12,909 nt of DNA from Vulcanimicrobiota bacterium (GTDB taxonomy: Bacteria > Vulcanimicrobiota > Vulcanimicrobiia > Vulcanimicrobiales > Vulcanimicrobiaceae). The position numbers were made by a program. This document shows, in pieces, positions 9,001 to 12,000 of the stretch. The stretch covers positions 1-12,909 of the forward strand of contig PLCF01000028.1 in assembly GCA_003135555.1 (NCBI GenBank), given 5' to 3'. Every line of letters starts with the position of its first letter. Position 1 is the stretch's first letter.

Positions 9001-12000
9001 AGAACGTACGGGCCGCGCGCCTGGGCCTGTTCCCCAACCTCAACGGAAACGCGTCGTACGGTACCTCCTCGACCGATCCGTCCGGGGGAACCTTCCGCAA
9101 CGCCGGCCAGGTCGGCGTCGTGCTGGCCGTCCCGATCTTCGACCGCGGGGTGACGCGGGCGCAGACGGCCCAGGCGCAAGGGCAGCTCGACCGTTCGCTC
9201 GCGCAGTTGCAGATCGCGCAGCAGGGCGTTCAGCTCAACGTCCGGACGGCGCTGGTCAACCTCGTCTCCGCATACGCCGCGCTCGACCAGACCAACGCCG
9301 AGTTGGCCAAGGCGCAAGAGGTGCTGCGTGCGACGCAGGCTCAGTATCGGGCCGGTGTCACCACGCTGCCGCTGCTGCTCAACGCGCAGGTCGGGATCAC
9401 GCAGGCGCTCACCGACGAGGTCACTGCGGTCTACACCGTGCGCCAGGCGGAGCAAGCGCTGCTCTTCGCGGAGGGCACGAACGGCGCCGGGTGAACTCCC
9501 GGCGGGATGACTCCGACGCTCCCGGTCTGGATCGACGATCCGACCAACGCGGCGATCCTGGCGGTGGCCGAGGATCGCCTGACGGGCTTTCAACTCGACC
9601 CGTTCGGTGAGATCGCCGCACGCAGCGGGCTCGACATCGCGACGGTCCTCGACAGGGTCGCCGCGATGTTGCGTTCCGGGACGATTCGGCGCGTGCGCCA
9701 GACGTTGATGGCGACCAACCTCGCCGACGGCGCGCTGTGCGCCTGGCAAGTCCCACCCGAGCGCCTCGACGACGCGTTCGCCTGGCTCTTCCGCGAGGAC
9801 CCGTTCTCGGGTCACGTCGTGATCCGTACCACCGACAACGCGACCGCGGGTTCCAACTATCGCCTGTGGACGACGCTCAAGGTTCCGCAAGGCTTCGCAC
9901 TCGAGAAGCACGCGCGGTTTCTCGCCGCGACGATCGGCGCCCAAGCCCATCGGCTCATGCCGGCGAAGGCGCTCTTCGCGCTGGGCGTCGGTCACGTCCG
10001 GCGGCGCGGGCTGGAGCCCGGTGCGCGTGCCGCCGAACCGGCCGAAGTGAAGGACACGAAGATCGTCGAGCTCGATGCGCTGGAATGGCGGGTGCTGACC
10101 GCGATCAAACGCGAGTTCGCGCTCGACGAGATCGTGCGCGACGTCTGGGCCGGGCGGGCGCGCGAAGCCGGCGTTTCGCTCGAGGAGTTCGAGCGCGTGG
10201 GCACGGCGCTCGGCGCGAAGGGCGTCATCGGGCGGTTCTCGACCTTTCTCGAGCACGTGAAGCCGCAGCAGCAAGCCGGCGGACGCAGCGTGACGCGCTA
10301 CAACGCGCTCTTCCACTGGAAGGTGCCGCGCGGCCGCGAGCTCGACGCCGGGCGCGAAGTCGGCCGCCACTACATCATGACCCACGCCTACTGGCGTGAA
10401 GGCGGCCCGGAATTCAAGGGCGTCAACATCATGGGCGTCGCGCACGGGATGGAGAAGGACGCGGTCTTGGCGCACAAGGCCGCGATCGACGAGCATTTGC
10501 GCGAGGCTGGGATCGAGTTCGACTACACCAACGTATTCTGGGGCGGGCGCAGCGAGATCAAGCCGTCGGAGATCGCGCCCGCCGCATACCTCGAGTTCTG
10601 CGCGCGGCACAAACTCGATCCGGAGGCGATGCGTTCATGATCCGCCGTCTGCTCGCAACCGTCGCCGTCGCGACGCTGGCGCTGTGCGCGTGCACGAAGG
10701 TCGGCGATACCGGCGCTTCCTCCCAAGCCGGCGGCGCGAACGCGCCGGGCGGGGTGCATGCCGATCGCTTGGTCATCGCGACGGCTTCCGACCCGCGCAA
10801 TCTCAACCCGGCGCTCGCGTCGGCGCAGCCGGTGCTCGAACTGTCGGCGTTCCTGTTCTCGTACACGGTCCGCTACGACGACCACGCGAACCCCGTCCCC
10901 GACGCGCTCAGCGAGATCCCGACGCTCGAGAACGGCGGAGTGAGCCGCGACGGCCTCACGCTCACCTACAAGCTGCGCCACAACATCAAGTGGCACGACG
11001 GTCAGCCGTTGACGTGCCGGGACTTGGCCTTCACCTGGAAAGTGATGATCAATCCCAAGAACAACGTGGTCACCACCGACGGCTGGAAGGACATCAAGAA
11101 CGTCGACTGCAGCGACCCCTACGTCGCCGTCGTACACATGAAGAAAGTCTACGCGCCGTTTTTGCAGCAGCTCTGGAGCGTCAACGGCAACGGGCCGATC
11201 CTGCCCGAACACATCCTCGCCCAGTACAACGATGACAAGGGCAGCTTCAACACCGCACCCTACAACTCGGCGCCGATCGGCAGTGGGCCCTACAAGTTCG
11301 TGGCCTGGGAACGTGCCAGCCAAGTGCGCTTCGAGGCCAATCCGGACTACTTCTTGGGCAAGCCGAAGATCCGCGAGTTGATCTACAAGATCATCCCGGA
11401 CGGCAACACGCTGGCGACCCAAGTGCAGACGCACGAAGTGGACGTGGCCTGGAACATCCCCGCCGTCGCCTACGACCGCGTGAAGAGCGTCCCCGGCGTC
11501 GCGGTCATCACGCCCGTCGTCTACATCTACGATCACATCGACTTCAACCTCAAGCGCCCGCTGTTCGCCGACGTGCGCGTGCGGCGGGCGCTGGCGTTTG
11601 CGATCGACCGCAAGGCGCTGCTCGAGAAGGTTCAGCATGGGCTGGGCGAGCTCACCGATACCTTTGAGTGCAAGGCGCTGTACCCGCAGTCATACGCCGA
11701 CGATGTCATGAAGTATCCCTACGATCCCGACAAAGCCAAGGCGCTCCTCGACGAGGCGGGCTGGACGGCCGGTCCGGGCGGCGTGCGCGTGAAGGACGGC
11801 CAGCGGCTGTCGTTCACGATCTCGACGCAGAGCGAGTCGACGACGGGCAAGAACAACCAGGCTCAGGTGCAGACCTATTGGCGCGCAGTCGGCGCCGAAG
11901 CGATCGTGAAGAACTACCCGACCTCGCTGTTCTTCGACAACACCGCCAACGGCATTCTCCAAGGCGGCAAGTACGACGTCGCGCTCTTCGCGTGGGGCGG

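Follow-up and report, generated by a model that had tools for sequence, protein, structure and literature searches.

A single-chain sirohaem decarboxylase homologue of Vulcanimicrobiota and a co-inherited aldo-keto reductase as candidate for the missing AhbC step of haem synthesis

The window, that is the whole stretch of 12,909 nucleotides analysed here, belongs to a Vulcanimicrobiota genome (G000) and carries a gene (product P0001) related to the sirohaem decarboxylases AhbA and AhbB, flanked by two syntenic neighbours. The features are as follows.

7881..9494, + strand: TolC-family outer membrane protein; syntenic gene on the upstream side of AhbAB (context)
9507..10640, + strand: single-chain AhbAB (sirohaem decarboxylase homologue), P0001, 377 aa
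9594..9989, + strand: AhbAB N-terminal half (residues 30-161), HTH plus AsnC-like domain, matched best by the AhbA model
9813..9827, + strand: first HxYxR motif of AhbAB, altered (H103 and R107 kept, Tyr replaced by Val)
10134..10499, + strand: AhbAB C-terminal half (residues 210-331), matched best by the AhbB model, contains H250
10383..10397, + strand: second HxYxR motif of AhbAB, intact (H293, Y295, R297)
10637..12304, + strand: family-5 solute-binding protein, its start overlapping the AhbAB stop, downstream syntenic neighbour (context)

A domain search of P0001 reveals two AsnC_trans_reg2 (PF17805) stretches, and the chain possesses two HTH plus AsnC-like units, as sirohaem decarboxylases require. 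The NCBIfam models for AhbA (residues 30-161, 41.5 bits) and AhbB (residues 210-331, 63.7 bits) both score under their cut-offs of 140 and 125, which marks P0001 as part of a divergent clade and no equivalog member. By sequence as well as by fold, the top PDB match is the single-chain NirDL (4ch7/4czc, presumably from Hydrogenobacter thermophilus), with a sequence E-value of 4e-9, TM-scores of 0.65/0.78 and 18% identity in the structural alignment. In a fold search with the structure model (pLDDT 91.7) NirDL was retrieved at E 1.6e-19, versus 2.7e-4 or worse for regulators. The ORF, the matches to both models and the NirDL relationship bear out an earlier note on this DNA, which had described a 377-aa fusion of AhbA and AhbB homologues.

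An alignment of 73 rows reveals that H103 and R107 of the first motif are invariant and that Val replaces Tyr in 72 of them; in the second motif H293 and R297 are found in 73/73 and Y295 in 72/73. The HxYxR signature of sirohaem decarboxylases is thus complete in the C-terminal half, while the N-terminal half has the His and Arg without the Tyr. This motif, including an essential arginine (Arg102B), is described for AhbA/B in the available text of PMC4145669. Residues H103, H250 and H293 align with His93, His226 and His261 of NirDL, which likewise holds both halves in one polypeptide; P0001 differs from it in the Val of the first motif, a longer C-terminus and, for most carriers, the absence of a NirJ-level partner. 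Conservation within the clade is unusually high (63-72% to P0001 in the loci compared), and its members share additional His, Arg and Lys residues (H163, H313, R348, K352). Sirohaem decarboxylation is assigned to P0001 because of this fold and motif, and the protein is very likely to act on sirohaem or its metal-free precursor. A single-chain AhbAB is as such already known, from the NirDL structure and from archaeal fusions (PMC3004389, available text).

Within the order the gene lies in a transport operon, away from the haem genes. The TolC and solute-binding genes are retained where AhbAB has been lost and adjoin each other directly in 5/5 non-carriers read; the loss is therefore real. The surroundings of the fused gene were compared at 80 loci of many phyla: no neighbouring family is common across phyla, and only three of these loci (L117, L168, L171) sit in haem operons. 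A plasmid collection yielded just two AhbAB matches, both at 27%. Near AhbAB, single lineages repeatedly have a gene for DUF4202, for DUF1802 or for a small Rieske protein, and the neighbour screen gave no clear G000 counterpart of any of them. Rieske domains also recur adjoining AhbAB or fused to ChdC.

The distribution was counted in 151 genomes of the order (31 in the earlier note), which are related to one another, so that the counts overstate independence. The AhbAB gene is present in 132 of them, full-length copies sharing 66-85% identity. Ferrochelatase (PF00762) occurs in all 19 non-carriers and in two carriers (G049, G077), and HemE-level matches (PF01208) fall in the same 21 genomes. 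The previously noted pairing of HemE with HemH is thus confirmed; the claim that AhbAB and HemE/HemH are mutually exclusive stands for 149 of the 151 genomes and fails for the two that hold both sets, so that ferrochelatase is found in every non-carrier, as proposed, though not exclusively there. The exclusion is near-total, not absolute. The switch of route was repeated: three genera are mixed for the gene, and two unrelated HemH cassettes substitute for the route; in G011 the SirC and CobA domains have gone from the haem operon. Among 50 carriers from other phyla, ferrochelatase was found in one, an AhbC-like gene in 14, ChdC in 47 and an aldo-keto reductase (AKR), discussed below, in 44.

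The remaining haem genes of G000 are located outside the window.

C47:21814-23712: SirC-HemC-(half HemD) fusion
C47:27948-29459: CobA-HemD fusion
C97:101124-101987: ChdC (NF008913, 276.9 bits, above the NCBIfam cut-off of 253)
C40:68536-69593, - strand: AKR, on another contig than AhbAB

Both fusions and ChdC are as the earlier note had reported, save that the first contains only half of HemD, and the haem-copper oxidase that it had led one to expect is encoded. The early genes (HemA/L/B/C/D, from ALA to uroporphyrinogen III) are present. Searches of G000 gave no ferrochelatase (PF00762) or HemE (PF01208) match; from the coproporphyrin-dependent pathway (UroD, CgoX, coproporphyrin ferrochelatase, ChdC) ChdC is present. 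CobA is found in 132/132 carriers and 5/19 non-carriers, a SirC domain in G000 and in 14/14 carrier loci read, and ChdC in 33 of 35 hand-picked order genomes (26/26 carriers, 7/9 non-carriers). Several findings support the proposed sirohaem route with ChdC as its last enzyme: CobA is lost with AhbAB and ChdC accompanies it in all carriers tested, copies of the P0001 clade sit between AhbC-like and AhbD-like genes in some loci, and four of five carriers searched have no sirohaem-using reductase, G001 being the exception. We are confident that P0001 serves haem synthesis by a route which depends on CobA and takes the place of HemE/HemH. The CobA counts led to rejection of Fe-uroporphyrin III, used without methylation, as its substrate. 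A HemF-family ORF in G000 was not taken to indicate the classical route, since it lies in a 12-kb stretch judged foreign by its GC content (46-53%); a weak HemY-like match is an amine oxidase-family gene within a sugar-modification cluster.

In Desulfovibrio and Methanosarcina barkeri the AHB pathway employs AhbA/B, AhbC and AhbD (PMC3942049, PMC4145669, PMC10114771, available text). Current reviews, as far as their text was available, recognize three haem routes; they assign the one through sirohaem to archaea and sulfate reducers and give no enzyme other than AhbC for the C2/C7 acetates (PMC13564367, PMC7242693, PMC10991733). The best G000 match to the AhbC model has an E-value of 4.4e-15. 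Full-length AhbC-like matches, none above cut-off, occur in 21/132 carriers and 0/19 non-carriers; with this model an AhbC-like gene is missing from 111/132 order carriers (84%) and 36/50 carriers elsewhere. The absence of AhbC, noted before for this genome and closed relatives, thus extends across the order, and the gap is real and wide there and in other phyla. An AhbD-like query found as its top G000 match the HpnH gene, at 50 bits. A NirJ-level match is absent in 111/132 carriers; the AhbC model scores NirJ relatives highly. Genome G161 possesses AhbAB, ChdC, AKR and a SirC that retains the chelatase Asp, and shows neither AhbC nor ferrochelatase, so AhbC is the sole gap there among the steps searched. 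The AhbC/AhbD pair of the minority may represent an added anaerobic cassette, like AhbD beside ChdC in Haloferax.

The AKR is present in 131/132 carriers and 0/19 non-carriers of the order. It is unlinked to AhbAB, being distant from it in closed genomes and placed on a separate contig in G000; the sole carrier without it (G077, an assembly of 170 contigs) also has HemE/HemH. In metagenome loci a haem gene lies within 5 kb of the AKR gene in 35/80 cases, versus 31/3275 for G000 genes (background 1%). Two haem operons contain both genes, in the orders hemA-AKR-ahbAB-sirC (L117) and ahbAB-cobA/hemD-hemC-hemB-AKR (L171), and in five Armatimonadota genomes AKR is near ChdC. In a blind test within the class of G196 (Gemmatimonadaceae), the fused gene was found in 5/5 new AKR genomes and 0/5 AKR-negative ones. 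Among the 50 carriers from other phyla, six (G174, G176, G177, G185, G189, G200; completeness not stated) show neither AKR (E<=1e-45), AhbC nor ferrochelatase.

The protein matches PF00248 (165 bits), adopts a TIM-barrel fold and reaches no NCBIfam family. Four positions, which we take to be the Asp-Tyr-Lys-His tetrad, are invariant in 59 rows, as are family-specific WG and DHR..R motifs. AKR11-type enzymes (PDB 1pyf, 3n2t, 1pz1, 1ynp) share the barrel (TM 0.70-0.77) and the tetrad positions; by comparison the AKR described here is 23-28% identical to them, has its own motifs and is tied to haem genes. It has no match in the plasmid collection, and the best 120 homologues of an Omnitrophota-type query are all bacterial. 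Complex prediction for AhbAB with AKR (score 0.00, mark 0.32) returned no answer. The AKR very probably belongs to the AhbAB haem route. No better candidate for the AhbC step emerged, and we would give it about an even chance in that role; that deacetylation is catalysed by it, or cannot proceed without it as a partner, we put at even or marginally better. Further partner genes with the same presence profile may exist. To our knowledge, no AKR cleaves a C-C bond of this kind.

In the proposed scheme, uroporphyrinogen III made by HemA/L/B/C/D would be methylated by CobA to precorrin-2, which SirC would oxidize to sirohydrochlorin, whereupon iron would be inserted. AhbAB would decarboxylate the C12 and C18 acetates. 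The C2/C7 acetates would then be removed to give coprohaem, most likely with the AKR acting alone or together with AhbAB: in the speculative chemistry that we favour, an NADP(H)-linked hydride transfer would bring rings A and B to a different oxidation level, and the quaternary acetate would be expelled while the ring becomes a pyrrole. ChdC would convert coprohaem to haem b. On balance we lean towards AhbAB as the sirohaem decarboxylase of a radical-SAM-free route to haem that most likely relies on the AKR for the C2/C7 step.

The main competitor, which we consider rather unlikely, casts the AKR as a helper that clears a two-carbon by-product (glyoxylate, for instance) or protects substrate or decarboxylase from oxidation by air, the acetates leaving through AhbAB, ChdC-type peroxide chemistry or an unfound gene. 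The AKR is kept beside AhbC in 21/21 genomes, which fits an aerobic/anaerobic pair and equally a role at another step; reduction raises the activity of M. barkeri AhbA/B 6.5-fold (PMC4145669, available text); and the six carriers with neither gene, together with the recurrent Rieske domains, point the same way. The high conservation of the clade, its additional His, Arg and Lys residues and its altered first motif would suit AhbAB as the deacetylase, yet at L298 and L300 the AKR is coupled to NirDL-type genes of the canonical kind, so the gap is not specific to the divergent clade. ChdC in this role is disfavoured by its retention in most non-carriers tested, and a detoxifying AKR could be replaced by paralogues, of which G000 has five, yet the gene is lost from all 19 non-carriers.

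Iron insertion presents a second gap in the order, since the Asp that marks bifunctional dehydrogenase/chelatases (PMC7018833, available text) is kept in 0/16 order SirC domains read and CbiX is rare, occurring in one of five order genomes (G001, also the only sirohaem-reductase genome of five, the two sets sharing four genomes); CbiX and HemH profiles have no match in G000. These findings would suit a metal-free sequence, in which P0001 decarboxylates precorrin-2 or sirohydrochlorin, the acetates leave and an unrecognized chelatase adds iron later. We regard this as improbable: Chloroflexota SirC keeps the Asp and CbiX adjoins ChdC or AKR in Verrucomicrobiota-type loci, so iron can enter first there, and a conserved Asp two residues earlier in SirC of G000 and 13/15 other order members might serve as the chelatase residue.

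It is very unlikely that a divergent radical-SAM enzyme, missed by the AhbC model, performs the AhbC step. The G000 assembly is 84% complete and has 15 radical-SAM matches, three without a named family; against this, none of the 13-14 in the closed carriers G001, G036 and G062 beats E 1e-15 with that model. Of the three unnamed genes, the one beside hfq/dapF (C17) was rejected as a substitute, for it is also present in 5/5 non-carriers. That P0001 is instead an Lrp/AsnC regulator, as database names and the transport operon would have it, or a haem d1 enzyme, with haem taken from outside, is scarcely credible given a 377-aa double unit where regulators have a single HTH plus effector unit of about 150 aa, the NirDL fold and HxYxR motif, the rarity of NirJ-level matches, the full early pathway with ChdC and the near-perfect replacement of HemE/HemH.

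As in the AHB pathway, CobA and SirC lie upstream, the decarboxylase has the AhbA/B fold with HxYxR, HemE and ferrochelatase are missing and coprohaem is the presumed intermediate; the differences from the published accounts, as available, are one chain in place of two, the frequent lack of AhbC, ChdC as the substitute for AhbD, an AKR inherited together with the gene, hosts with haem-copper oxidases and no assigned chelatase in the order. Haloferax volcanii uses NirDL/NirGH and AhbC, then PitA (ChdC) in air and AhbD without air; it resembles the present carriers in its sirohaem-route genes, ChdC as the aerobic last step and the lack of uroD, cgoX and cpfC, whereas most carriers here have no AhbC, and its authors, in the text available, left room for another route to coprohaem (PMC5746218). 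Aerobic counterparts are given as CgdC for CgdH and ChdC for AhbD, with none named for AhbC in the available text (PMC10114771). Sulfolobus acidocaldarius, Haloquadratum walsbyi and Nitrosopumilus maritimus have fused ahb-nirDH and neither ahb-nirJ gene, the same gap as here; the available text of that 2010 paper doubted haem synthesis in them and proposed no substitute (PMC3004389). In the main texts searched (supplements excluded) the AhbC-free route is unexplained, and no paper ties an AKR to sirohaem-derived haem or treats Vulcanimicrobiota with sirohaem; tables in Dailey et al. 2017 (MMBR), outside that search, may list AhbAB plus ChdC without AhbC.

What is new is the co-inheritance of the AKR, the AhbAB fusion and AhbAB with ChdC in an aerobe being already known. 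A fourth haem route (CobA, SirC, AhbAB, an acetate-removing AKR and ChdC), radical-free, air-tolerant and common among bacteria from soil and fresh water in at least seven phyla, with this order's iron enzyme not yet recognized, seems to us to fall just short of an even chance; its AKR would explain the archaea without AhbC/AhbD. The gap seen in three archaea in 2010 is now found in most carriers of this order and of other phyla, with one soluble candidate named, and the AKR hypothesis suits an assay already established in E. coli. Should it prove true, an aldo-keto reductase would be credited with a new chemistry of C-C cleavage, there would be an engineerable haem route free of iron-sulfur enzymes, and the reading of genomes taken for haem auxotrophs and of thousands of proteins labelled Lrp regulators would be corrected.

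The gene at the centre of this analysis is the following:

Window 9507-10640, forward strand: single-chain AhbAB, 377 aa (P0001)

Its start lies 13 bases downstream of a TolC-family gene; at the other end, the stop codon and the start of the next gene, for a family-5 solute-binding protein, overlap. The wider setting (window 6400-12909), with an RND adaptor-TolC pair on one side and tandem family-5 binding proteins on the other, is conserved across the order Vulcanimicrobiales. Family-5 proteins of other bacteria bind haem or ALA. Pfam recognizes two AsnC_trans_reg2 stretches and a NirDL-like HTH in P0001. 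The NCBIfam models for AhbA (41.5 bits, cut-off 140) and AhbB (63.7 bits, cut-off 125) match one half each, and judged by sequence the protein belongs to a divergent clade outside these equivalogs. Its near homologues, under the organism name Candidatus Eremiobacteraeota, are mostly labelled Lrp regulator. The closest solved structure by sequence is single-chain NirDL (4ch7/4czc; E 4e-9), and a fold search with an AlphaFold2 model (73-row alignment, pLDDT 91.7) gave E 1.6e-19 for NirDL, approximately 1e-5 to 1e-4 for AhbA/B chains, and 2.7e-4 or worse for Lrp regulators. In D. desulfuricans AhbA/B an HxYxR motif lines the active site and its Arg is essential (PMC4145669). The motif is intact in the C-terminal half of P0001 (H293 in 73/73 rows, Y295 in 72/73, R297 in 73/73) and altered in the N-terminal half, where H103 and R107 are invariant and Tyr is replaced by Val in 72/73 rows. 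The fold match and the motif bear out the one-polypeptide sirohaem decarboxylase of the earlier note, and P0001 is predicted to function as such; the fusion is a real single chain but was already known, and so is not new.

All counts for the order refer to the same 151 genomes, including the source genome, G000. The fused gene is found in 132 of these (carriers), being fragmentary or split in three (G123, G127, and G147); in the single-contig genome G127 it extends over three frames (G127:C1:1512775-1513892), likely through sequencing indels. Ferrochelatase (HemH) occurs in 21/151, namely all 19 non-carriers plus carriers G049 and G077, and HemE-level URO-D matches occur in the same 21. Since only G049 and G077 have both, the proposed exclusion between AhbAB and HemE/HemH holds in 149/151 genomes but is not absolute. 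Four carriers have weaker URO-D-family matches (≤246 bits). Genes below HemE level occur in carriers G055 (C2:522804-524868), as a tandem pair with 246 and 210 bits, G066 (C9:320629-321611), where the copy is broken, and G039. The sirohaem module and ferrochelatase are both present in four genomes, G049 (C86), G077 (C158), G180, and G278, which are possibly switch intermediates or bin contamination.

In five non-carriers, each of a different genus, the AhbAB site was read, and in 5/5 the TolC gene directly adjoins the binding-protein gene; AhbAB has therefore truly been lost. Its replacement is either a hemE-hemF-hemH-hemY cassette (8 genomes) or a cassette with another HemH type, often accompanied by an AhbD-like gene (14 loci), the types being set by a tree of all 22 HemH rows. 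The cassettes are unrelated, and genera g1, g18, and g44 each mix carriers with non-carriers: the route switch has been repeated. Non-carrier G028 possesses both: a hemE-hemF-hemH-hemY set, and another ferrochelatase that is accompanied by an AhbD-like gene (C2:318937, C2:3169272).

CobA is present in 132/132 carriers versus 5/19 non-carriers; in non-carrier G011 the haem operon lacks the SirC and CobA domains, although HemC and HemD are there. Among 35 hand-picked order genomes ChdC was found in 26/26 carriers and 7/9 non-carriers. The claim of a sirohaem route ending in ChdC is upheld by these figures, and since a sirohaem-using reductase occurs in only 1/5 carriers, CobA and SirC are kept for another purpose. 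Whether from a carrier or a non-carrier, the ChdC of the order (G000 copy L079:9125-9988) contains an insertion of approximately 35-40 residues relative to the Pfam model. The SirC-HemC-HemD, CobA-HemD, and ChdC proteins reported previously for G000 were confirmed: one operon on C47 encodes SirC-HemC with only half a HemD domain, HemB, a MobA-like protein, HemL, HemA, and CobA-HemD, while ChdC (276.9 bits, above the NCBIfam cut-off of 253) is on C97. Haem users comprise two PF00115 oxidase matches and one cytochrome b/c gene. No HemE or ferrochelatase was found in G000; as this assembly is 84% complete, its absences rest on relatives. One ORF was not counted as a native gene:

G000:C13:4765-5802: HemF-family ORF in a 12-kb stretch

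This stretch (L390; G000:C13:1-12000), read as foreign or misassembled, has 46-53% GC and is joined on one contig to DNA of 65-72% GC in a genome of 68% GC; it is likely a chimeric assembly or a recent transfer. Short contigs of G000 also hold a pair of almost identical HemW-like genes (G000:C5:11976 and C10:4086), which reflect either duplication or strain mixture.

The absence of AhbC, the radical-SAM enzyme of acetate removal, also stood: the best match of its model in G000 is only E 4.4e-15, and a search with this model found no AhbC-like gene in 111/132 carriers. Closed carriers G001, G036, and G062 each have 13-14 radical-SAM matches, and the AhbC model does not reach a better score than E 1e-15 with any of them. 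An unnamed radical-SAM gene at G000:C17 was rejected as a substitute, being found in 5/5 non-carriers as well; G000 has two more radical-SAM genes without a named family. In 21 order genomes, every one a carrier, there is an AhbC-like gene of full length (437-488 bits against a cut-off of 650); it adjoins an AhbD-like gene in 19 of the 20 loci listed. Two examples scored 462-474 bits for AhbC and 396-408 bits for NirJ; since all are below cut-off, the name is kept at AhbC-like. BchJ-like genes join this cassette at L092:8697-11544 (G014), L095:9744-13190 (G058), L059, L062, L069, and L072, and BchE (803 bits, above cut-off) does so in some genomes.

A candidate partner is an aldo-keto reductase (AKR), whose gene lies within haem operons at L117 (hemA-AKR-ahbAB-sirC) and at L168 and L171 (ahbAB-cobA/hemD-hemC-hemB-AKR).

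G000 C40:68536-69593: AKR orthologue, 59% identity

This orthologue is well apart from five paralogues (588 versus ≤123 bits). At E≤1e-45 AKR is present in 131/132 carriers and 0/19 non-carriers, the sole exception being G077 (170 contigs), which has HemE/HemH. Omitting the unpublished G100, G130, and G147, all carriers with CobA and AKR, gives 129/148 genomes for the fused gene and 128/129 carriers for AKR. Because the genes are unlinked in the order, joint loss in a single deletion does not account for the pattern. As kin genomes are not independent, counts and repeated switches are given without a p-value.

The association extends to other phyla. From at least 600 matches in a scan of GTDB contigs, 80 loci were kept (67-76% identity to P0122), with titles including Armatimonadota, Phycisphaerae, Verrucomicrobiota, Thermoanaerobaculia, Gemmatimonadaceae, Longimicrobium, Dehalococcoidia, and Vulcanimicrobiota; 15 with Vulcanimicrobiota-type neighbours were left out, and 50 of the remaining 65 were used, longer ones being preferred. 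Among these 50 carriers, whose genome completeness is not given, 44 have AKR (two partial), 47 ChdC, 14 an AhbC-like gene (13 whole, one in two pieces), and one ferrochelatase. Three Thermoanaerobaculia genomes have a second AhbAB-clade copy (53-54% identity) between AhbC-like and AhbD-like genes, which ties the clade to the sirohaem route. AKR lies <4 kb from ChdC in five Armatimonadota genomes, and is coupled to a canonical NirDL-type gene in L298 and L300. Among the 80 metagenome AKR loci nearest a Phycisphaerae-type query, many of them kin, 35 place AKR no more than 5 kb from a haem gene (ChdC 15, CbiX 15, AhbAB 4, and others); the background is 31/3275 G000 genes. In a blind test set, the class of G196, AKR was found in 6/121 genomes; the fused gene is present in all five newly found ones (64-69% identity; 4/4 without unpublished G229), and one has ferrochelatase. 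In five AKR-negative genomes, chosen by hand from 20 listed of 115, PF17805 was found in 0/5 and ferrochelatase in 4/5.

Several neighbours recur. ChdC with a C-terminal Rieske fusion directly follows AKR in L288:6009-7088 and L317:6014-7063, and in Verrucomicrobiia L130, L135, and L147 a free Rieske protein and DUF4202 are upstream of AhbAB; Rieske is possibly an electron partner of the haem module. DUF1802 adjoins AKR in Verrucomicrobiia and Armatimonadota loci (L257, L258, L259, L262, L264, and L332), and that screen found no counterpart in G000.

The AKR model displays a sound AKR fold (pLDDT 91.2), nearest to AKR11 at 23-28% identity. Its alignment reveals invariant Asp, Tyr, Lys, and His at the tetrad positions, and an invariant DHR..R loop that could bind carboxylates. 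Iron insertion presents a second gap. Chelation by CysG requires Asp104, a residue that only bifunctional enzymes keep and that is Ser in monofunctional SirC (PMC7018833). G000 SirC has Ser at this position, and the chelatase Asp is found in 0/15 further order SirC domains read, 13 of which have an Asp two residues earlier. CbiX occurs in 1/5 order genomes; local profile searches of G000 matched neither CbiX nor HemH. Because the chelatase Asp is retained in Dehalococcoidia SirC, and CbiX neighbours ChdC or AKR in Verrucomicrobiota-type loci, the iron-insertion gap is local and the AhbC gap general. It is mainly for this reason that AKR is placed at the AhbC step: in G161 the AKR gene is part of the haem operon, and AhbC is the one enzyme missing among the steps searched. 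Counting against this placement, AKR is kept in 21/21 genomes with an AhbC-like gene, and 6/50 carriers of other phyla (completeness not given) show none of AKR, AhbC, and ferrochelatase. To our knowledge, acetate-removal chemistry by an AKR is without precedent. On gene distribution and context, AKR is nevertheless a strong, testable candidate for the missing AhbC step.

A literature search, read at the level of listings and largely limited to openly available papers, found no published link of an aldo-keto reductase to sirohaem-derived haem. Reviews from 2020-2026 name AhbC as the sole enzyme for the step and indicate no purified-AhbC study as of 2022 (PMC7242693, PMC10114771, PMC10991733, PMC13564367). 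S. acidocaldarius, H. walsbyi, and N. maritimus, which lack both radical-SAM genes, present the same gap (PMC3004389). Haloferax volcanii uses the sirohaem route with ChdC in air but has AhbC (PMC5746218, PMC8305020). These findings are of value for a sirohaem route that does without AhbC, widely and repeatedly, in bacteria with oxidases, together with one strong, testable candidate for the missing step.
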